A stretch of 32,000 nucleotides of DNA from Breznakia blatticola. GTDB lineage: Bacteria; Bacillota_I; Bacilli_A; Erysipelotrichales; Erysipelotrichaceae. Numbering within the stretch: position 1 is the first letter of the stretch; each line of letters begins with the position of its first letter. Below, piece after piece: positions 6,767-32,000 of the stretch. The translations under genes were made by a program, and so were the position numbers. The notes beneath the pieces were generated by a model. The model saw nothing but the letters and a program-made list of their open reading frames with translations. It made no database searches and had not been told where the DNA came from. The stretch is from positions 27,694-59,693 of the forward strand of contig NZ_SODD01000011.1 of assembly GCF_004365815.1 (NCBI RefSeq), in the 5' to 3' direction.

Positions 6767-7735
6767 TTATACTTCTTGAATAACTGGTAATGCTGTTTCA
6801 GTGAACACTTTCTTTAATGATTCACATGACTTATCAAATTTTCCTTGGTCTACTTCATTTAGTGGTAATTTAATCACTTCTTTTACCCCTTTCCGACATA
6901 TAATTGCCGGTACACCAATGTATAGTCCTTTTTGACCATACTCTCCATTTTGATATGCACTTACTGGAATTACAATATCTTCATTATTTAAAATTGCGAG
7001 TACAATCTTATTTAATGATAAACCAATTCCATAGTTTGTGACACCTTTTAACTCGATAACTTCATATGCAGCATCACGTACTTCTTTATAAATATCTAAT
7101 AAATCGTTGAAGTCTTTTCCTTTTTCATCGATATAGTCAAGTAAGCTTTTGGCACCTACATAACAGTTTGTCCATGATACGAAACTTGAATCTCCATGTT
7201 CTCCTAAGATATATGCGTGAATACTTCTTGGGTTAATTCCCAAGTAATCACTCATTAAGAAACGTAAACGGGCAGAGTCAAGTGATGTTCCAGAACCAAA
7301 TACTTGGTTATGTGGAAGTCCAGTCACTTCTTGGGCAACACATGTTAATACATCTACTGGATTACTTGCGATAACAAGCACCCCATTAAAGCCACTTGCT
7401 TTGATTTCCTCACAAATTTCTTTCATAATTCGTGTGTTGATTGCAGTTAGCTCTAAACGTGATTGTCCAGGTTTTTGGTTTGCTCCTGCAGTTACCACAA
7501 TGATATTGGCATCCTTACACTCTTCATATCCACCTGACTTAATAACCATCTTTGAATTTGGAGCATATGGAAGCCCATGACTTAAGTCCATTGCTTCTCC
7601 TTTTGCTTTTCCTTCATTGACATCGATAAGCACAAGTTCATCAATACCATTCGCCATTAATAATGTATACGCCATACTCATTCCAACAGATCCTGTTCCT
7701 ACAAGTACAACTTTTCGATCTTTGATTGTTCTCAT
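6767..7735 (-). CDS. ldh: L-lactate dehydrogenase
   Basis: Rossmann motif KVVLVGTGSVGMSMAY, the substrate/catalytic region GEHGDS, and length 322 aa. AGGAGAAGGA SD. Confidence 0.9.
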   Translation of the reverse strand: MRTIKDRKVVLVGTGSVGMSMAYTLLMANGIDELVLIDVNEGKAKGEAMDLSHGLPYAPNSKMVIKSGGYEECKDANIIVVTAGANQKPGQSRLELTAINTRIMKEICEEIKASGFNGVLVIASNPVDVLTCVAQEVTGLPHNQVFGSGTSLDSARLRFLMSDYLGINPRSIHAYILGEHGDSSFVSWTNCYVGAKSLLDYIDEKGKDFNDLLDIYKEVRDAAYEVIELKGVTNYGIGLSLNKIVLAILNNEDIVIPVSAYQNGEYGQKGLYIGVPAIICRKGVKEVIKLPLNEVDQGKFDKSCESLKKVFTETALPVIQEV

Positions 7736-7820
7736 AATATCCTTCTCCTGTTCTTTACTTTATTGTACATGCTTCCTATCATTTCTACCAATGTTATGAA
7801 TTATCCTTTTTATTCCACTT

Positions 7821-7865
7821 AAAAAAATGAACCAGTTGAAGAATCTACATTTCCAACTAGTTCAT
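7821..7865 (-). terminator. Strong rho-independent terminator closing the pilus operon
   Basis: Minus-strand RNA AUGAACUAGUUGG-(loop)-UUCAACUGGUUCAU forms a 13-bp stem including 2 G-U pairs. It is followed by UUUUUUU (plus-strand A7 at 7821-7827). Confidence 0.75.
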
Positions 7866-7873
7866 CTATTAAT

Positions 7874-8572
7874 TTATGTAAGATTTTGTTTTTCTCTTTT
7901 TCTTGATTTATAGAGAACAAGTATTACGATAGCTGAAATGAGAATACAAGCTATGTAGTCTTTAGTTCGAGTTACATCTCCTGTATCAGGTTGTTTTCCA
8001 TCTCCATCAGAATATTGTTCATTACTTTTTTTGCCATCATTTTTATCATCAGTAGTATCATCTATTACAGTCTTTTTATATGTATTCACAAATTCTAATT
8101 TTTCAGGTTTTTCACCACTTCCATTATCTCCAATAATTTCAGCAATTAAATCTCCATCACGGTCCCATTTAATATATACGGTGAGTGTATATACTTTGGT
8201 ATCATATGTAAAATTCTTTAAGTCATCCATGTGAATTTGGTACAGTGAATATTTGTAAACACCAACATTTTCATATCGAATTACTCCGATATTCTTTTCC
8301 ATGTTACCTGTTAAGGAAAAGGTATAAGTTGATCCATCTTTACCATCAGGCAATGGAGCATTTTCACTTAATGCTTCCAGACAGTAATCAAAACTAAAAT
8401 CTTCAACATTTTTTGTAGTTTCTGTAGTTACGACTTGTCGTAACGGTAGAATAATCGAAACTTCTTTATTTGCGGCATACACATGCGTATTTTCTATCGT
8501 GTGGATTGCAGCAACAAAAAGCAACAAACAACATATAGAAAATTTAATCCATTTTTTTGTTACCTTCTGCAT
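7874..8572 (-). CDS. Small (ancillary/basal-type) pilin with one pilin isopeptide-linkage-type Ig domain and a C-terminal sorting signal
   Basis: Signal peptide (…THVYA/ANK). The domain pattern FSFDY..APLPDG...GVYKYSLYQI...YDTKVYTLTVYI...EFVNTY is typical of streptococcal-type pilin domains. C-terminus is QPDTG, then a TM helix, then KSRKREK. It is the last gene of the sortase operon. Confidence 0.7.
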   Translation of the reverse strand: MQKVTKKWIKFSICCLLLFVAAIHTIENTHVYAANKEVSIILPLRQVVTTETTKNVEDFSFDYCLEALSENAPLPDGKDGSTYTFSLTGNMEKNIGVIRYENVGVYKYSLYQIHMDDLKNFTYDTKVYTLTVYIKWDRDGDLIAEIIGDNGSGEKPEKLEFVNTYKKTVIDDTTDDKNDGKKSNEQYSDGDGKQPDTGDVTRTKDYIACILISAIVILVLYKSRKREKQNLT

Positions 8573-9533
8573 CCTCTATCCTTTCCGCTTCTTCTTGATC
8601 ATTTCTTCTTTTTCTACGTAACCATAAATACAATAATAAAAGTAATAGTAATAAAAGAATCAAAATCACAAATATACTAATTCCAAATAAACTGCTATTT
8701 GAAAAAGACGAATCATTATTCATCTCACTTATTTTATTGTCTGAGAATGAGTCTTTAAATATTTCATCCCCCAGTCGACCAACTAAAATATATCGTCCGT
8801 TTGTTGCATCGCTTGCACAAGTACTCAACAAGAGAATTCGATCACTTGTACTAACTTTAATATCTCGCGAATATGTTGAGATAGAAAGAAGATACGAAAG
8901 GTATTCTTCTTGTTGTTTTTTGTCTTTAATATCTGGATTATATAATCTAAGATCATATGCATCTGCTTCCACATACGCAAAAAACTCAATACCATAATCT
9001 TTACCACGAACAAATAAATTCCCATACTTATAAGTATCAAAAACTTTTTTATCCTGAAATTTATCTAGGTTTCCAAACATCGCATTTTTTTCAACATGAT
9101 GTCCATAGATAATACTATTGAAATCTGAAAAGTCTGGATTGTTGTTATAATCTAGATACAAACTTCCTGCTAGTGAAAAATCACCTTTTGCATTTATATT
9201 TAAATACTTCGAGTTATCTTTTGCTTGTGTAACAGGATAATCAACTTGAGTCCCATATACATTTAACCAAGCAATGACTTCATCATTTATTTCTTGAAGT
9301 TCTTCAAATGACGTCGTATCTTCACTTGTTGGTTTATATGCTTCATAATGGGTTGCACCTGCTTCTCCTACAACTTGGTTGTTATCCCATATGGAATAAC
9401 AACCAAATATCATAAGTAAGAGAAAAATGAACATTACTACATAATCAACTATTGTGCTAAAACCACGAATAATTTTAATTTGTCGTTCTTTTTTATCATC
9501 AATGAAAGCTTCTTTTTTATTTACATCTTTCAT
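8544..9533 (-). CDS. Class B sortase (pilin polymerase type)
   Basis: AWLNVYGTQVDYPVTQAKDNSKYL, SIIYGHHV (His), LLLSTCAS (Cys239) and GRYILVGR (Arg) match the class B sortase signature. There is an N-terminal TM helix plus an extra C-terminal TM helix with 9 consecutive Leu. Confidence 0.85.
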   Translation of the reverse strand: MKDVNKKEAFIDDKKERQIKIIRGFSTIVDYVVMFIFLLLMIFGCYSIWDNNQVVGEAGATHYEAYKPTSEDTTSFEELQEINDEVIAWLNVYGTQVDYPVTQAKDNSKYLNINAKGDFSLAGSLYLDYNNNPDFSDFNSIIYGHHVEKNAMFGNLDKFQDKKVFDTYKYGNLFVRGKDYGIEFFAYVEADAYDLRLYNPDIKDKKQQEEYLSYLLSISTYSRDIKVSTSDRILLLSTCASDATNGRYILVGRLGDEIFKDSFSDNKISEMNNDSSFSNSSLFGISIFVILILLLLLLLLLYLWLRRKRRNDQEEAERIEDAEGNKKMD

Positions 9534-9555
9534 ATGGATTTTGTCTTAAACAGAC

Positions 9556-10755
9556 TTAACGTACTGCGTTACGCTTTCTGTTTACTGCATAGTATCCAAA
9601 TCCTGCTGCACCAACAACGATTAGGATAATAAATGGTAAGTTATCTAATAAAATACCAGTGATACTTGTTGAATCAAATGTATTCGTAACTGCAACACTA
9701 TTTTCCTTTTCTCCTAATAGTGTGCTATATTCTGTATCTTTGTCTGCACGGATAATTAAACTATCCCCTTTATCGTAACCTTCTAATTTAACTTCTGCAC
9801 CATTTGTTTTCAGTACAGCTGAAGGCTTGTATGATGTTGAAGCAGTTTCAACTCCATCCATAGTTGTACCTGTAGGTAAATTCTCAACTACAACAGTTTC
9901 TCCATGTTTTAGCTTTACTTTAATTTCTGCCTTTTTGTTTGCTCCTGCTAGTGTAAATTGTCCTGATTTCCCACTTACATCACCATCTTTATCAACAACT
10001 TTGTAATCATATGTTTGTGATTCTGTATGTAATGATGAAGACTTGAAATTAAGTGTGAAATCAAATTCTTGCGTTAAATCTGCTAAATCTCCTGTTGTTG
10101 TTTTGCTCAAAGTGAATGATTCTGTTGGAATTGCACTTCCTGCAATTTTTCTATATACTCCAGAAAATGGAATTGTTGCTCCTGCAGTACCACCATCAAT
10201 TTTATCTGCATCTACAATATTTCCATCTACAACTTTCGTGCTATATACTGCAACACCTTGTAACTTCAATCCACCATTATCGAAATCATTAACAACATAA
10301 ACGTGCATACGATAAACTTCTGGTGCATCTGTTATTGAAGCAGTACCCGGCACAGATGGCGTTTGTTCAGTAATTTGATAAATATATTCACCTGCTTTAC
10401 TAAACCCTCCTGCTCCTACACTAGGAAGTACAATTTCTTCACTTGCAGTTACTGTAACCACATCACCATTTGTTGATTCAGTACTTGCAGAAGTAAATGA
10501 TACAGTTACGTTAGCAATAGCTGGTAAGTTTCCTGTATCTGTTGATTCATTAAAACCCTTTTTTTCGAATGCATACTGAACATTCATAGTAGGTGTTGTA
10601 GTTCCTAAGTCTTTTTTAATTGTCTTGGTAATTGTAATCTGATTAGTGAATAAGTCAGCTGCTAATACTTTTGACGTTCCTCCACTTACGAATAATCCTA
10701 CTGCCATTAAGAATGCCAGTACTCCGTATAATACTCTTGATTTTCTTTTAAACAT
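9556..10755 (-). CDS. Major (backbone) pilin candidate, T-antigen/FctA-like two-domain pilin
   Basis: Signal peptide (…KVLA/ADL). Domain-edge motifs ITITKTI, GEYIYQITE, SFTLSKTT and VAVTNTF resemble Lys/Glu/Asn isopeptide triads. C-terminus is SITG, then a hydrophobic helix, then NRKRNAVR. It sits between the sipA-like and sortase genes. Confidence 0.7.
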   Translation of the reverse strand: MFKRKSRVLYGVLAFLMAVGLFVSGGTSKVLAADLFTNQITITKTIKKDLGTTTPTMNVQYAFEKKGFNESTDTGNLPAIANVTVSFTSASTESTNGDVVTVTASEEIVLPSVGAGGFSKAGEYIYQITEQTPSVPGTASITDAPEVYRMHVYVVNDFDNGGLKLQGVAVYSTKVVDGNIVDADKIDGGTAGATIPFSGVYRKIAGSAIPTESFTLSKTTTGDLADLTQEFDFTLNFKSSSLHTESQTYDYKVVDKDGDVSGKSGQFTLAGANKKAEIKVKLKHGETVVVENLPTGTTMDGVETASTSYKPSAVLKTNGAEVKLEGYDKGDSLIIRADKDTEYSTLLGEKENSVAVTNTFDSTSITGILLDNLPFIILIVVGAAGFGYYAVNRKRNAVR

Positions 10756-10801
10756 TTCTTTTTCCTCTCTTTATCTTTCTGTTTTATAAACACACATTTA
10801 T

Positions 10802-11344
10802 TTATAGTCCTCTTCGTCTGAAGAAACTAATCGCTTTTCCTTTTATGTTTTTTACATTTACTGGACCATAGACTCGACTATCTAGGGAGTCTTTTCGATC
10901 ATCAGCTAATAGGAATACCTCATCCTCTTTTAAAGTTACTGGGAATTTTATTCCTTCAACATATGGAAGCGTTTCTTTTGTTATTTCTGGTTCATACTGC
11001 AGTGAACCATTAATCATTAATCCGTCTTCAGTGATATCTACTGTATCACCTGCCACGGCAACAACTCTTCGTAACTGTGTTTTACCTTCGTATGTAATAA
11101 CAACGACATCTCTAGCAACATAATGCTTATCAAATCGATAATACAATACTATATCTCCATTTTTTATGGACGGTGACATTGTATTATCTGCAGTTCGTTG
11201 AATTCCAAATACAAAATTAAACAATACAACAAATATTAAAATTACAACTAATATTTTTGTTAACAGTCGAAGCAGTTCGCTTTTTACCGTTGGTGGATGT
11301 TTTGGTGGTCTTTGTTTTGCCACTTTCTTTTTTTCATCCATCAA
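10802..11344 (-). CDS. Type I signal peptidase homologue with substituted catalytic dyad (SipA/LepA-like pilus assembly factor candidate)
   Basis: S26 fold motifs are all present in order: ADNTMSPSIKNGD, LRRVVAVAGDTV, LLADDRKDSLDSR. The Ser position is Thr55 (ACA, 11180-11182) and the Lys position is Arg92 (CGA, 11069-11071). ATGA start/stop overlap with the upstream adhesin gene. Confidence 0.75.
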   Translation of the reverse strand: MMDEKKKVAKQRPPKHPPTVKSELLRLLTKILVVILIFVVLFNFVFGIQRTADNTMSPSIKNGDIVLYYRFDKHYVARDVVVITYEGKTQLRRVVAVAGDTVDITEDGLMINGSLQYEPEITKETLPYVEGIKFPVTLKEDEVFLLADDRKDSLDSRVYGPVNVKNIKGKAISFFRRRGL

Positions 11345-13884
11345 TGATACCTAACTTTCTTACGTATAGAATAAATCATCCATGTAGCAATCATCATTCC
11401 ACCAATACCTAAGAGAAGATACCAAATATTGATATCATCATCAAATGCAGTTGCTGGATACTCCTTGCTTGAAGTTGTAATTGATACACTTGATGTTAGT
11501 TTATTTGCACTTGCAGTATTTTCTAACGTAATTCCTGTTGGAACATCATTCTTACCTTTTAATGTACACTTGAATGATAGTTCCACTTCTTCACCAATAT
11601 CTAAGTATATAGACATTCCATTCATCAACTCAGATACTTTATGTGTTTCATCGGTTGTTACAACATTGTTTTTATTTGTATATTTCATTGTAACAATTGT
11701 ATTTTGTGGATTTTCAATATAAGGCAATAAGTTACTTAATGTATCTTTTACCTTTGTGTTATCCGACAAAGTTGCTCCTGTCTCATTACGAACTAAAATC
11801 TTATAGTATAAGTCCTCTTTTGGTGAAGCATAATTATCACCATTCGTATCGATAACACTTTTATTAATAGAAATAATTGGCGAACCTGCAGCTATTGAAT
11901 CTGTTGCTGTAAATCTATTATCTACAATTACTGTGTTAGTTAATTGTCCATTTAGCTCATCATTTAATTTATTCAAATCAAAATTTCCAGCTCCTAAGGT
12001 TTCTGTTGCTACCAAAGTTACAGTTACTTTCTGTGACTCACCAACCCCCATCCAAAGTTTAAATCCACCTTCATAAATTAGATGTAAACTATTCTTCCAT
12101 ATTGCATCATCTCTATCATCTTCATATGCTACATAAATATTAGGATCACTTTCAAAACTTTTCTGTAAGTCAAAATACTGAGCAGTATTACCTAATATCA
12201 GTTGCAAAGGAACGTCATTAATTCCTATTACTGAATTATTTGTTACAAAGAACTCGAACTTGACTTTATCACCTGGTCGTACGATTTCATCATCGCATAC
12301 ACCATCGCATACCTTTGTCATTTTCTTATCTATGGAAACATCCATTTTTGTATAAGCATCAACTTCAGTATCATTGATACCAGCATACACTGTGTTTTTG
12401 AATCTATCGATATTATCAAATCCCAATGCTTTTAAAGAAGCTTCATCTTTCATTACGACACTGAATTTAACTTCAAACTCATATCCCGATTCTAAATCAA
12501 CACTTAATTCTCCTGACATTAATTTTTTAATTGTAGTTGATGACCTACCAATTTCAGTTGGGTTACCTTCTGATGACGATTTTTTCTTTATTATGGTTAC
12601 CTCTTGATTATCAGGATATACGAAATAATCATAGATTCCTTCTAATGGGTCTTTAATTACCATATTCTCATATGTAGCACCACCATAGTTTGATACAACT
12701 ATCGTATATGTTATCGTATCGTTTGGTTCAGCAAAGTTATTTCCATCTGGTCCATCTGTAACAAATTTTCCAACATATAAGTTTGGAAATTGTAGATCAA
12801 TATTTGCTTGTGCTTCAACTCCACCTACAGTAACTCTATTTTCCATACTCTTTTGGTATCCACCCAAAACAGCTGTAGAAAGTTTTCCACTTCCTTTTGC
12901 GGCATTAGCAGCATCTTCGATACTTCTTAGTTCTACTCTATATTTCATTTTGACTGTAGCACCTGCAGGAATATTATAGCTTCCATAACGTTGTGTAAGT
13001 CCACCCATTGTTTTTTTAACTCCAGGTTGTTCTTGCAGTACATCGTTAACATAAATATCCACTACTTGTTCTTCTTCTGGCTGTTTATAATACTCTACTA
13101 ACACTGGTGAAAATTTACTAAACATATCTAACTCATCAAAAAATAGAATTTCTTTCAAATCTGCACCAGTTTTATTTTCTGCAGAAATTGTATATTCTAA
13201 GGTATCACCAGCCCAACCAGGATGATTTGGATCTCTTGTTTTATTGATTACTGATTTCGTTACCAATAATTGATCTGTTGTGTAATCATTCTTACAAAAT
13301 AGAACATTTCGATATAAATCTCCGATGCGCACTGTACCATTAATACTTGTTGTGGCATTTGGCATGTTTACCTTATGATTAAATCCTGTAACTAATGTTC
13401 CACTTAGTGTTTTACTTGTAGAAGCATCAAACTTCATTTCTATTGTTCCTGTAGTTCTTTCTCCAGATGTACTAGCATTAATTCGCCATTGTCCTACGGT
13501 CACTCCATTACTATCTACAAGATTACTGTACGCTGTATTACTATACAAGTAATTGATATTGTCGCTTACTAAAAAGTCAAATATGACAGAATCTCCTTCT
13601 TGGAAACTACTATTTTGTGTAGTAGCTGTCCAATCTATTGATGCATTGATCATATCTCCATCAAGCATCGCTGCATAGTTTGTCATATTATATCCTTGAC
13701 TCGTTTCTATTATAAATTCATTAATTGTAATTCCAACATTTCCACTTGATAACAATGATATTTCTTCATTTCTTTCAGTTTCTTCTTTAGCTTGAATCGG
13801 TACTTTACTAAGCAAAGAAGCGACCACAATAAAAAAAACCAGGATTAACCAAGTTAAATTCTTTTTGTTTGTTTTCCCTACCAT
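11341..13884 (-). CDS. Large surface adhesin / pilus tip candidate: N-terminal Cna-A-like binding domain plus four DUF11-type repeat domains and a C-terminal anchor
   Basis: Signal peptide. Residues ~45-195 follow a collagen-binding-like pattern (IDWTATT...EGDSVIFDF...LVDSNGVTVGQWRI). Four ~150-aa repeats each contain a DUF11-like core: GDTLEYTISAENKTG, NDTITYTIVVSNYGG, GDKVKFEFFVTNNS, EDLYYKILVRNETG. C-terminus is YPATA...TM...RKKVRYH. Confidence 0.65.
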   Translation of the reverse strand: MVGKTNKKNLTWLILVFFIVVASLLSKVPIQAKEETERNEEISLLSSGNVGITINEFIIETSQGYNMTNYAAMLDGDMINASIDWTATTQNSSFQEGDSVIFDFLVSDNINYLYSNTAYSNLVDSNGVTVGQWRINASTSGERTTGTIEMKFDASTSKTLSGTLVTGFNHKVNMPNATTSINGTVRIGDLYRNVLFCKNDYTTDQLLVTKSVINKTRDPNHPGWAGDTLEYTISAENKTGADLKEILFFDELDMFSKFSPVLVEYYKQPEEEQVVDIYVNDVLQEQPGVKKTMGGLTQRYGSYNIPAGATVKMKYRVELRSIEDAANAAKGSGKLSTAVLGGYQKSMENRVTVGGVEAQANIDLQFPNLYVGKFVTDGPDGNNFAEPNDTITYTIVVSNYGGATYENMVIKDPLEGIYDYFVYPDNQEVTIIKKKSSSEGNPTEIGRSSTTIKKLMSGELSVDLESGYEFEVKFSVVMKDEASLKALGFDNIDRFKNTVYAGINDTEVDAYTKMDVSIDKKMTKVCDGVCDDEIVRPGDKVKFEFFVTNNSVIGINDVPLQLILGNTAQYFDLQKSFESDPNIYVAYEDDRDDAIWKNSLHLIYEGGFKLWMGVGESQKVTVTLVATETLGAGNFDLNKLNDELNGQLTNTVIVDNRFTATDSIAAGSPIISINKSVIDTNGDNYASPKEDLYYKILVRNETGATLSDNTKVKDTLSNLLPYIENPQNTIVTMKYTNKNNVVTTDETHKVSELMNGMSIYLDIGEEVELSFKCTLKGKNDVPTGITLENTASANKLTSSVSITTSSKEYPATAFDDDINIWYLLLGIGGMMIATWMIYSIRKKVRYH

Positions 13885-13968: not shown

Positions 13969-13997
13969 ATTATAATCGTTCACCATAAATACGTCAA
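13969..13997 (-). promoter_or_regulatory. Sigma-A-type promoter of the pilus operon
   Basis: Minus strand reads TTGACG (13997-13992), a 17-nt spacer, then TATAAT (13974-13969). This predicts a 5' UTR of roughly 75-80 nt. Confidence 0.6.
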
Positions 13998-14071
13998 TCT
14001 ATTTGATTCTTCATAAAATGCGTTTTATGCGTGTTTTGTGCGAAATATACAGATTATTTTATTCTATATTT

Positions 14072-14117: not shown

Positions 14118-14942
14118 ATGTATAAATTAATAGCTACAGATTTAGATGAAACATTACTTAATGATGACCACGAAGTCTCATTGAAAACCAAACAAGCAAT
14201 CTATAAAGCACAAGAACAAGGAATCTATATTGTTCCTTGTAGTGGACGTGCACCGGGATTTCTAGCAAATCTTTATGATGAATTACATATCAATGATGAT
14301 CATAACTACAGCATACTAGCAAACGGATCAATTGTGATTCAAAATAAAAGTGAAGCCATCATTTCAGCAACAAGTATTCCTTTTGAAAATGGAAAGTCGA
14401 TATTTACGGATGCAACTGAAAAGGGATACTGTGTAGAAGTGTTTACGCCTAAAAAAGTATATGTTTTTCAAGTAACTCCTGATGAAAAAGAACGTCTTTT
14501 TAGTTTTGGTAATCGTATGCAATTTGTAGATGACACAGACTATTCAATTTTTGAAAATCAAGAAGTGTTAAAGATCCTAATTGTTAAAGAGGGTGGAATT
14601 CCAGAATTCCAAGAATATGAAGCTACGCATACCCATGTATTTGAAGGTAAAGTTTGTGTAAGCTACTCAAGTAATCGATATATGGAAATCAACCCTTTGC
14701 ATGTAGATAAAGGAACTGGATTAGCTGCATTAGCAAAGCATTTGAATATCCCAATTGAACAAACTATCGGTGTTGGTGATAATTTCAATGATGTTGGATT
14801 AATGAAGAGTGCAGGTTTAAGTATTGCTGTTGCTAATGCAATTCCAGAAATCAAAGAACTTTCTGATGTTGTACTTCCTTATACAAATAATGAAGATGCG
14901 ATTATGCATATACTTGAAGAATATGTATTTTCAAAGAAGTAG
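14118..14942 (+). CDS. Cof-type HAD-IIB family hydrolase (sugar-phosphate phosphatase family)
   Basis: Motif I IATDLDETLL, motif III/IV GVGDNFNDVGLMKSAG, and a Cof-type cap region. Confidence 0.85.
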   Translation: MYKLIATDLDETLLNDDHEVSLKTKQAIYKAQEQGIYIVPCSGRAPGFLANLYDELHINDDHNYSILANGSIVIQNKSEAIISATSIPFENGKSIFTDATEKGYCVEVFTPKKVYVFQVTPDEKERLFSFGNRMQFVDDTDYSIFENQEVLKILIVKEGGIPEFQEYEATHTHVFEGKVCVSYSSNRYMEINPLHVDKGTGLAALAKHLNIPIEQTIGVGDNFNDVGLMKSAGLSIAVANAIPEIKELSDVVLPYTNNEDAIMHILEEYVFSKK

Positions 14943-23251: not shown

Positions 23252-24505
23252 ATGCCTATTCGACAAGAAACAGCTAAATCCCACTTTTCCATTGCAAACA
23301 AGTCATTTGATAATGCTTGGAGATTACAAAGATATGATTCAACCAAGCCCACAATTCAAAAGATATTTACTGATCAATGGAGTGATTTTTTGAAAGATCC
23401 TCAAGTTGCTCACAATGGTTTTCGTGATGTGACTTTAAAAGAAGTCCAAAAGATGATGGACTGTGGAACCTTTGAATGTGGTTTTGAAATTTATGAGTGT
23501 CCCGATTGTCATACAACCAGTGTTGTCTGTTATACATGTAAAAGCAGATTCTGTTCTTCTTGTGGTGTTAGATATGCTAAAGAACGAGCACTTAGTATTT
23601 CCGCAAATGCTTTAGATGTTCCTTATCGACACCTAGTTTTTACGATTGATGAAGAACTAAGAGAGTATTTCTTAAGAGATAGAGAGATGCTACACCTTTT
23701 ATTTAGTGCAGTCAAAGATACACTGTTTTATGTTTTCGATAAAATCAATGGAAAAAAAGACACATTTACTCCAGGAATCATTATGGTTTTACATACTTTT
23801 GGACGTGCATTAAACTGGAATCCACACATTCATTGCTTAATCACTGAAGGCGGTATGAACAGTAAACATATTTATAAGAACATAAATTTCATCAATTATG
23901 AGTCATTGAGAAAATCATTTATGCGTACTCTATTGTATAAAATGAGAGACTCTTATGATGTGAATTCTAGAGAATACAAAAATTTCAAAAAACTAATAAG
24001 CAAGTTATATCGTGAGCATAAAAAAGGATTCTATGTTTACGCTCCACCACTAGAAAACAGAAAAGGTAAAGACGCAATTATAAATTATATATTACGTTAT
24101 ACTGGAAGACCTGTAATGGCACAAAGCAGAATTATCCATTACAACAAAGAAAAAAAAACAATCAAATATTATTATGAGGATCATAAAACAAATGAACGCA
24201 TTGAAGTAGAAGAACATGTATTTCTATTCATGAAAAAACTTCTTCTTCATATTCCCGAACAACAATTTAAAATGATTCGCTATTATGGAATATATGCAAC
24301 ATGTAATCATTCTCATAAAGAGAAAATGAAAATTTTACTTCCACGATTAGGAAAAGCAAAAGAGAGAGTATACTATCGTGGTGATTTAATAGAAACATTC
24401 GGAGTAGATCCGTTTTTATGTACATGTGGTCATTATATGGAATTCATAGATTACTATGTTCCATCAAGTAAAGGTGGTGATAAGAATGGACCAATATATA
24501 GCTAA
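23252..24505 (+). CDS. IS91-family transposase (N-terminal zinc-binding domain plus HUH/Y2 catalytic domain)
   Basis: Cys cluster ECPDCHTTSVVCYTCKSRFCSSCG, HUH motif HTFGRALNWNPHIHCLITEGG, double-Tyr motif IRYYGIYA. AGAGGG SD. The ORF looks intact. Confidence 0.85.
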   Translation: MPIRQETAKSHFSIANKSFDNAWRLQRYDSTKPTIQKIFTDQWSDFLKDPQVAHNGFRDVTLKEVQKMMDCGTFECGFEIYECPDCHTTSVVCYTCKSRFCSSCGVRYAKERALSISANALDVPYRHLVFTIDEELREYFLRDREMLHLLFSAVKDTLFYVFDKINGKKDTFTPGIIMVLHTFGRALNWNPHIHCLITEGGMNSKHIYKNINFINYESLRKSFMRTLLYKMRDSYDVNSREYKNFKKLISKLYREHKKGFYVYAPPLENRKGKDAIINYILRYTGRPVMAQSRIIHYNKEKKTIKYYYEDHKTNERIEVEEHVFLFMKKLLLHIPEQQFKMIRYYGIYATCNHSHKEKMKILLPRLGKAKERVYYRGDLIETFGVDPFLCTCGHYMEFIDYYVPSSKGGDKNGPIYS

Positions 24506-31904: not shown

Positions 31905-31945
31905 AAAATAGGGTAGAGGGAAAGAAATATATTCTTTCGCCCCTC
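31905..31945 (-). terminator. Terminator-like hairpin ending a transcript that originates beyond the window edge
   Basis: Minus-strand GAGGG-gcg-AAAGAA-UAUAU-UUCUUU-CCCUC followed by UACCCUAUUUUGUCU. Confidence 0.5.
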
Positions 31946-32000
31946 CCATTGCACCGTACGTACGGTTCTCGTATACGGCGCTACATATGTATTAATCACG
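31946..32000 (-). other. GC-rich palindrome-containing non-coding segment (possible 3' part of a structured RNA; truncated by the window)
   Basis: Plus strand contains CCGTACGTACGG (12-nt perfect palindrome) and CGTATACG (8-nt palindrome), flanked by CGCC/GGCG. This is much more GC-rich than the surrounding DNA. It lies directly upstream of the dnaX promoter and is followed by a terminator. Confidence 0.3.

Follow-up and report, generated by a model that had tools for sequence, protein, structure and literature searches.

What does a bacterium of the insect gut build with a block of five genes that encodes a class B sortase, a signal-peptidase-like protein and three secreted proteins with C-terminal sorting signals? 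The block occupies positions 7874-13884 of a 32,000-nucleotide stretch of Breznakia blatticola (contig NZ_SODD01000011.1, positions 27,694 to 59,693; this whole stretch is referred to as the window), and Breznakia is an insect-gut genus within the Erysipelotrichaceae. An initial annotation, made from the DNA letters, had read the block as a sortase-pilus operon with the gene order of the streptococcal FCT locus. Our analysis leads us to a confident answer: the operon very probably builds a three-component covalent surface pilus by the route that combines a class B sortase with SipA, as in the FCT-2/3/4 loci, in pilus islet 2 (PI-2) and in the VR-10B locus of Clostridium perfringens. It is a well-supported addition to a known pilus type, not a new system, and public databases partly annotate it as such. 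The NCBI entries of B. blatticola include 100% identical copies of three proteins encoded by the block, WP_134169014, WP_134169008 and WP_134169006, under the names DUF11 or fimbrial isopeptide protein, class B sortase and pilin isopeptide linkage protein.

The block consists of five co-directional, tightly packed open reading frames (ORFs) on the minus strand, whose coordinates were re-checked in the window. In the direction of reading they are a tip-protein candidate gene (11341-13884; 847 amino acids, aa), a SipA-like gene (10802-11344; 180 aa from the TTG at 11344 or 179 aa from the ATG at 11341), the backbone pilin gene (9556-10755; 399 aa), the class B sortase gene (8544-9533; 329 aa) and a small, presumably basal, pilin candidate gene (7874-8572; 232 aa). 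The first four, up to and including the sortase gene, are co-oriented and stand in the order of the family, and the full set has, as first proposed, the order Cpa-SipA-FctA-SrtC1-FctB of Spy0125-0130, which is conserved in FCT-2, 3 and 4 (PMC4049620). The likeness to the FCT locus holds for this order; it does not extend to the genomic region, because neither the regulators nor the fibronectin-binding genes of FCT adjoin the operon. As for the packing, the initial figures are exact for the 29-nt overlap (8544-8572) and for the two gaps, which lie at 9534-9555 (22 nt) and 10756-10801 (46 nt); the exception is an ATGA overlap placed at 11341-11344. There the coding strand reads TTGATG (...CAT TGA TGG...), and the junction of the tip and sipA genes is a one-base TGATG overlap (TGA/ATG), or a four-base TTGA overlap if TTG is the start. 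Translational coupling of the two genes is untouched by this correction.

The sortase belongs to class B, as had been claimed, according to the model TIGR03064 (192.7 bits against a cutoff of 153.75). Alongside this equivalog match it has the catalytic His, Cys (in a TLxTC-like context) and Arg. These residues are H145/H146, C239 and R247, and the segments GHH144-146, STC237-239 and NGR245-247 align with solved class B sortases. Among PDB sequences the best match is 4y4q, entitled 'Sortase, SrtB family' (E 2e-71, 51% identity), and 3psq is found at E 4e-42; both score far above the haem-type SrtB structures of Staphylococcus aureus and Bacillus anthracis. We take 4y4q to be pneumococcal SrtG1 and 3psq to be Spy0129. 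Its predicted topology has one transmembrane (TM) helix at the N-terminus and an additional, C-terminal one (about aa 276-308) with a charged tail. This second helix is kept in most relatives, including both tandem sortases of the PI-2-type loci of the S. oralis group, and is missing from S. pyogenes SrtC1 (PMC7900414). A search of the operon proteins for the sortase-B signal TIGR03063 gave no match.

A shaft protein for such a sortase is found in the neighbouring gene. An AlphaFold2 model of the 399-aa protein, built from a 19-sequence alignment, reaches a pLDDT of 85.6 and predicts two elongated CnaB-type domains, in keeping with the two-domain pilin of the initial annotation. Compared with the PDB by Foldseek, it is most similar to S. 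pneumoniae PitB (E 1.7e-25, TM 0.72), followed by S. oralis PitB and the Spy0128 T-antigens (E about 1e-16). At the sequence level it matches PF24547 (DUF7601) with 50.6 bits and, among PDB sequences, PitB 4s3l with E 9e-14. It had been suggested to look for a lack of CnaA/CnaB-type folds in the 399-aa and 232-aa proteins; the HMM, PDB and Foldseek matches show pilin relatives instead.

Alignment of about 45 homologues illustrates how the two domains differ. The isopeptide triad of the second domain (D2), K218/E303/N358, is essentially universal. In the N-terminal domain (D1), K44 and E130 are universal as well, and the position of the Asn, within the motif FxNxY, is Gly199 in the window. All Breznakia alleles have Gly or Ala there, a single further locus has Ser, and nearly all other relatives have Asn, and the D1 Asn is retained in PitB, one of the reference triads (PMC12617251). 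As this Asn is replaced, the N-domain probably does without its isopeptide bond, which would amount to the natural loss of one of two stabilising bonds in the Breznakia backbone pilins. A candidate for the lysine that links one subunit to the next is also apparent. Lys185, in DKIDG, aligns with a K[VI][DE] motif that is present in most relatives and with PKVE of PitB, and the linking Lys of Spy0128 and PitB lies in the Omega loop at the corresponding place (PMC4923907; PMC7900414); Lys185 is the likeliest candidate for the linking Lys, at a putative Omega-loop site. The protein ends with the sorting signal TSITG (aa 363-367, nt 9655-9666), DNLPF, a TM helix and a basic tail. Most relatives have [VI]TPTG before DNLPF, and the Breznakia form S/N-ITG lacks the Pro.

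The proposal of a small pilin at the end of the operon is supported by Pfam FctA PF12892 (38.7 bits) and by TIGR03786 (45.9 bits), both above cutoff, and by PDB matches to FctB 3klq (E 1.2e-6) and to FctB3 8k6t. A word-indexed search with this protein returned 3 proteins, and more relatives came from the genome loci described below. It contains one FctB-like Ig domain, in which the first strand is devoid of Lys (R45/Q46) and Q112 occupies the Glu position. With neither a first-strand Lys nor the catalytic Glu, a situation also found in FctB, the domain is not expected to form an internal isopeptide. Lys155, in a loop, is conserved family-wide, and K166/K167 come after the last strand. The linker (aa 167-201) is rich in Asp, Lys and Gly with a single Pro, and the sorting motif QPDTGD (aa 194-199, nt 7979-7993) is followed by a TM helix and a basic tail. 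Throughout the family this motif is xP[KDTQ]TGD, not LPXTG. In C. perfringens, the base pilin FimB has been proposed to be a substrate of sortase B rather than sortase A (PMC8088525).

Could the sortase simply anchor the three proteins as monomers, like the Isd-type class B sortases, and make no polymer, as the initial annotation had considered among its refutations? The xPxTGD signal of the small pilin presumably resembles the NPKTG-type signals of class B, and the lost isopeptide Asn of D1 might be a sign that the protein has to withstand less mechanical load. The class B sortases characterised so far mostly anchor haem-uptake proteins as monomers (PMC8088525, PMC7900414). Nevertheless, the sortase is nearest to the pilus sortases 4y4q and 3psq and not to the Isd enzymes, the predicted fold of the 399-aa protein is that of the PitB/Spy0128 shafts, most relatives share its Lys at the Omega-loop site, and the layout is that of proven pilus loci. 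Moreover, the operon carries a homologue of SipA, which in S. pyogenes is required specifically for polymerisation. We therefore consider monomer anchoring very unlikely and continue with the polymeric pilus.

The SipA homologue (10802-11341) had been called signal-peptidase-like, and it is an S26 protein with S. pyogenes SipA as its top solved relative. It has an N-terminal TM helix, and a signal-peptidase I fold is predicted from PF10502 (86.1 bits) and from the signal peptidase I model TIGR02227 (101 bits against a cutoff of 47). Among PDB sequences, SipA 4n31 comes first (E 5e-24, aa 43-180) and LepA 4k8w next, and true signal peptidases reach only E 4e-5. In PDB alignments to SipA and to a true signal peptidase, Thr55 falls at the position of the nucleophilic Ser, which is Asp48 in SipA, and Arg92 at that of the general-base Lys, which is Gly85 there (SipA residues as in PMC4049620); the Ser/Lys dyad is absent from this protein. 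Thr and Arg are kept at these positions in the related loci aligned to it. We scored 42 operon-linked SipA homologues, 41 of them with the Lys position aligned, and the Lys is kept in none (0/41): the general-base position holds R, A, G, S or Y, and the nucleophile position varies between G, T, S, D, A and M. A nucleophile position that varies next to a Lys that is never kept is the pattern of a non-catalytic scaffold, not of a catalytic residue.

This pattern bears on a second alternative, in which the S26 protein functions as a signal peptidase dedicated to the pilin precursors and employs Thr55 as nucleophile to process them. The score for TIGR02227, more than twice the cutoff, fits such a role, and Thr and Arg are chemically conservative substitutes; the free variation at the nucleophile position and the missing Lys in all aligned homologues do not. 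In E. coli leader peptidase, exchange of the catalytic Lys145 for other residues is said to abolish activity, which also counts against a peptidase here. While some pilus-linked homologues, from S. suis and S. agalactiae, seem to have an intact dyad, S. pyogenes SipA lacks it, shows no peptidase activity and is essential for pilus polymerisation, and mutating its dyad-position residues leaves polymerisation unaffected (PMC4049620). The comparison of the operon-linked homologues carries this picture beyond S. pyogenes. An active peptidase is accordingly a highly improbable reading, and a non-proteolytic SipA remains our preferred one.

The tip-protein candidate is the most divergent member of the operon. 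It is composed of a signal peptide, an N-domain (about aa 33-205), four DUF11/CnaA-like Ig domains that begin near K210, K373, K520 and K675, a sorting motif, a TM helix and a basic tail. DUF11 (34.8 bits), TIGR01451 (55.2 bits) and TIGR04226 (49.9 bits) all match above cutoff, a Big_8 match (E 0.0036) stays below it, and the protein has no PDB sequence match. The sorting motif is YPATA (aa 809-813, nt 11446-11460), compared with IPITG in B. pachnodae and VPxTG in other loci. The initial annotation had presented this large adhesin as the counterpart of Cpa, which did not hold up: no thioester or collagen-binding domain and no Cpa-related match in Pfam, NCBIfam or the PDB was found. Homologues of the tip protein are confined to Breznakia, both in the searches and among the related loci. 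Among 1.8 billion representative proteins only 3 match its N-domain (13270-13788, minus strand), the orthologue from B. pachnodae included, and a PDB sequence search with this domain returned noise only. Another match, P0031 (1370 aa), covers aa 80-123 in 13 separate stretches, so that a short motif of the N-domain is a repeat unit elsewhere. From gene position, sorting signal and Ig-domain content we infer that the tip protein acts as an adhesin.

Taken together, these components suggest the following assembly path. Sec would export the three structural proteins, and their C-terminal sorting signals would keep them in the membrane. The membrane-anchored sortase, with Cys239, His145/146 and Arg247, would cut after the Thr of YPATA in the tip protein and of SITG in the backbone pilin. 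It would then form a bond between this Thr and a lysine in the following backbone subunit, for which Lys185 is the best candidate. In the resulting fibre the tip protein would form the cap and the 399-aa pilin the shaft. The SipA-like protein, with its signal-peptidase fold and peptide-binding cleft, would play a non-proteolytic part, offering the pilin precursors to the sortase as a chaperone or scaffold. Finally, the FctB-like small pilin would join through a loop Lys (Lys155 or Lys166/167) and end polymerisation, and cleavage at QPDTGD would attach the fibre to peptidoglycan, a step that the operon sortase itself could perform. Polymerisation, the lysines used, the non-enzymatic role of SipA and the final anchoring sortase are inferred by homology with Spy0125-0130 and PI-2.

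Several observations weigh against this scheme. The Breznakia pilus is predicted from its genes. Only D2 of the backbone pilin has a complete triad, D1 being without its Asn, and the backbone motif is without the usual Pro (SITG versus VTPTG). Thr and Arg are conservative swaps for Ser and Lys in the SipA-like protein, which makes residual catalysis conceivable. The tip motif YPATA ends in Ala, not Gly. For the tip protein there is no detectable homology to Cpa, PitA or the tip proteins of other loci, and its AlphaFold2 model, built from four sequences, is unusable (pLDDT 47.7). The small pilin is without the Pro-rich tail and LPXTG signal of FctB, and no housekeeping sortase to anchor a base pilin is visible in the window.

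The expression signals of the operon can be compared with those of a closely related strain (Logan contigs L003 and L004). The five-gene block is predicted to be a single transcription unit with its own promoter and terminator. For the promoter, the initial annotation had named TTGACG-17-TATAAT, a sigma-70-type sequence at 13969-13997 (minus strand), about 85 nt upstream of the first ATG. It is the top-scoring match in 9 kb (11/12), and L003 has both hexamers and the 17-nt spacing unchanged, with one substitution in the spacer. Promoter-like matches as a class are not enriched in the consensus scan (49 found versus 45.2 expected); this promoter owes its credibility to its position and its conservation in L003. 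The intrinsic terminator that had been described lies at 7818-7867 (minus strand), an AT-rich hairpin with a fold of -19.2 kcal/mol (z = -5.4, 0/200 shuffles as good) that precedes a run of seven U (UUUUUUU). The consensus scan overlooked it because its stem is AT-rich. It is kept in L003, where two changes in the stem arms still pair as G-U wobbles. The strongest ribosome-binding site of the operon is that of the backbone pilin gene, and an Rfam search of the operon leader gave no match. At 14012-14029, 15 nt upstream of the -35 hexamer, there is an inverted repeat, CATAAAA-N4-TTTTATG, which has one mismatch in L003; a similar CATAAAA...TTTTATG pair lies upstream of the B. pachnodae operon. 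The repeat may be an operator, although the evidence is weak and it may be chance in AT-rich DNA.

Comparison with L003 is also informative about selection. Amino-acid identity is 95-99.7% for the flanking genes, 97% for the sortase and 98% for SipA, and drops to 87% for the small pilin, 79% for the tip protein and 70% for the backbone pilin. At the nucleotide level, identity is about 95-97% except in blocks with sharp edges, where it is 54-81%. These blocks correspond to the middle of the tip gene (about 11950-13100), almost the entire mature backbone pilin (about 9600-10735) and the linker of the small pilin (about 7920-8056). Substitution rates calculated by the Nei-Gojobori method for the window and L003 follow the same boundaries. 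In the flanks, srtB and sipA, dS is 0.10-0.25 and dN at most 0.022, and a dN/dS of 0.08-0.09 shows strong purifying selection on srtB and sipA. The mature backbone pilin has a dS of 0.57 and a dN of 0.25, and aa 256-650 of the tip protein a dS of 0.91 and a dN of 0.25, while the signal peptide and sorting signal of the backbone pilin stay below a dS of 0.09. As dS is raised 3- to 6-fold in the divergent blocks and dN is raised together with it, the divergent alleles were apparently brought in by recombination. The values also point to relaxed or diversifying selection on the exposed pilin domains. Four further variants of the backbone pilin, one from B. pachnodae, are 51-54% identical, with a nearly invariant sorting signal. 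All this indicates that the exposed parts of tip and shaft are swapped between strains as cassettes, whereas the assembly genes and sorting signals are held constant.

The surroundings of the operon are as initially annotated, with ldh (6767-7735) on one side, a divergent gene for a Cof-type HAD hydrolase (14118-14942) on the other, and, among the annotated neighbouring genes of the window, no RofA/Nra- or MsmR-type regulator and no mobility gene adjoining it. The neighbours encode Ldh, an Mbeg1-like protein, a PHP protein, the HAD hydrolase, a racemase, an SDR protein and an ABC transporter with PadR; fibronectin-binding genes are absent among them, as is an adjacent tRNA gene. Two matches to mobile elements occur at a distance. 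An IS91-family transposase gene at 23252-24505 (plus strand; Y2_Tnp E 3e-37, with Zn_Tnp_IS91) has argS and a gene for phosphoglycerate mutase as its neighbours; it does not adjoin the pilus genes, being about 9.4 kb away from their promoter. A match to the group II intron family RF00029 at 31908-31983 (minus strand), at 40.7 bits against a gathering score of 40, lies directly upstream of a dnaX-like gene at the window edge.

In the closely related strain the operon has the same ldh/HAD site with fully syntenic flanks. In B. pachnodae (JAUSUR010000005; L002/L007) the five genes stand at another place, bordered by a DUF998 gene and recQ: the upstream side consists of a large helicase gene, two unknown genes and the DUF998 gene, the downstream side of recQ, a WYL gene and a HIRAN gene. 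From this other site it follows that the operon moved or was gained independently. For acquisition as an island the signs point in both directions, as the GC content of the operon block (0.30-0.35) is the same as that of the flanks and no mobility gene or tRNA gene is adjacent, yet the site in B. pachnodae is a different one.

To place the operon in a wider context, one genome per species was scanned with the sortase alignment as query, and ORFs were labelled with profile HMMs made from our own alignments. The scan returned 54 loci. In about 38 of them the gene for a large tip protein is followed by those for a SipA homologue, a PitB-like pilin and a class B sortase, in this order. What comes next differs. 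In S. oralis, S. halitosis, S. tigurinus and Granulicatella it is a second sortase, the PI-2 type. An FctB-like small pilin, as in the window, comes next in Christensenellaceae, Oscillospiraceae, Lachnospiraceae, Anaerovoracaceae, Mogibacterium, Dorea and Oliverpabstia, and also in metagenome-assembled genomes (MAGs) of Coriobacteriia and Propionibacteriaceae, several of them from termite guts by isolate name. The initial annotation had called pili of the class B sortase and SipA type much less studied. This is correct insofar as studies of them deal almost only with pathogenic streptococci and C. perfringens; it makes them look rarer than they are, as the layout occurs in dozens of gut anaerobes.

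Three observations from the scan deserve mention in their own right. The contigs with the small-pilin layout that are binned as Propionibacteriaceae, Coriobacteriales and Coriobacteriia MAGs (L010, L016, L026, L028, L034) reflect either a spread of the Firmicute-type pilus across phyla or mis-binning. An extra, more distant sortase (E 1e-28 to 1e-40 with the SrtB profile) follows the small pilin in five loci on six contigs, two of which are identical (L005/L021, L009, L010, L032, L041). It is a candidate for a dedicated anchoring sortase of xPKTGD base pilins, and the Breznakia operons have no such extra downstream sortase. In S. halitosis VT-4 (L020, 6115-6669), sipA is split into two ORFs (79 and 101 aa); it is probably a pseudogene caused by a frameshift, and the rest of this PI-2-type locus is intact.

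A family with such a patchy, cross-phylum distribution raises the question whether the window operon is merely a silent or decaying remnant of horizontal transfer that makes no structure. The other chromosomal site in B. pachnodae, the lack of an adjacent dedicated regulator and the split sipA of the relative S. halitosis would agree with this. Decay, however, is hard to reconcile with five ORFs that are intact in three Breznakia lineages, with the low dN/dS of srtB and sipA, with a conserved promoter and terminator and a GC content like that of the flanks, and with a cassette-like diversification that implies proteins which are displayed and under selection. We give very little credence to a remnant and regard the operon as a probably functional pilus locus.

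Seen from this perspective, the window and the about 38 loci show that machinery studied almost only in pathogens is widespread among commensal anaerobes in the guts of insects and vertebrates. The reason why SipA is needed for class B sortase pili is an open question (PMC7900414), for which the comparative set offers natural variation in the form of Lys-less SipA proteins, two-helix sortases, xPxTGD base pilins and backbone pilins with one isopeptide. The replacement of cassettes suggests that pilus variation is selected even in an insect-gut commensal, where the agent could be phage, host or competitors. A bolder idea, which we advance tentatively and rather doubt, is that Clostridia, Erysipelotrichia and, apparently, Coriobacteriia and Propionibacteriaceae from the gut share a large, essentially unstudied branch of SipA/SrtB pili. 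In this branch two-helix class B sortases would do the whole fibre, including anchoring at xPxTGD, without a sortase A and with a Lys-less SipA as obligate scaffold.

How does the operon compare with known systems? In the searches above, the closest relatives of its backbone pilin and sortase are those of the PI-2 (PitB) type and not those of S. pyogenes. The PI-2 operon pitA-sipA-pitB-srtG1-srtG2 of S. pneumoniae, S. oralis and the mitis group has its first four genes in the same order, PitB is the closest structural relative of the backbone pilin (Foldseek E 1.7e-25), the sortases share the C-terminal TM helix, both SipAs are without the dyad, and the backbone sorting signal, xTPTG or SITG, is followed by DNLPF in both. 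PI-2 backbone pilin alleles are reported to be variable too (PMC3178606). On the other hand, PI-2 has a second sortase in place of the FctB-like small pilin, and two tandem sortases are not found in Breznakia. The tip protein of Breznakia does not have the PitB-like domain that is part of PitA-type tip proteins, the dyad positions of SipA are Gly/Ala in PI-2 and Thr/Arg in Breznakia, and PitB has the D1 isopeptide Asn (PMC12617251) that the Breznakia pilin lacks.

With the S. pyogenes FCT-2/3/4 core, cpa-sipA-fctA(tee)-srtC-fctB, the operon shares the entire five-gene order including the overlap of tip and sipA genes (PMC4049620). Further common features are the class B sortase (3psq E 4e-42), SipA, a two-domain backbone pilin, in Breznakia with a candidate Lys at the Omega-loop site, and a small pilin that, like FctB (PMC7900414, among others), is without an internal isopeptide. 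The shaft pilin is hypervariable and the assembly genes are conserved in both. The differences lie in the thioester-domain Cpa of S. pyogenes, which the Breznakia tip does not resemble, in SrtC1, which is without the C-terminal TM helix that the Breznakia sortase has (PMC7900414), in the anchoring end of the small pilin, where FctB has a Pro-rich tail and LPXTG for SrtA and Breznakia an acidic, Gly-rich linker and QPDTGD, and in the dyad positions of SipA, which are Asp/Gly in S. pyogenes and Thr/Arg in Breznakia.

A pilus of the SipA/SrtB type has been demonstrated experimentally in C. perfringens by ladders and immunogold (PMC8088525). Its VR-10B locus (CnaA, FimA, FimB, signal peptidase and class B sortase), to judge by its description, resembles the Breznakia operon in that it too belongs to a Firmicute outside the streptococci and combines three pilins with an S26 homologue and a class B sortase (PMC8088525). 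It differs in the Cna_B collagen-binding domain of its tip protein and in its connection with virulence in poultry necrotic enteritis, Breznakia being an insect-gut commensal. The cassette variation of Breznakia has its parallel in the tee alleles of S. pyogenes and in the variable PitB pilins. Measured against these three systems, the Thr/Arg SipA, the sortase with two TM helices, the sorting motifs, the loss of the D1 Asn, the orphan domain of the tip protein and the exchangeable cassettes of Breznakia are variations within one family.

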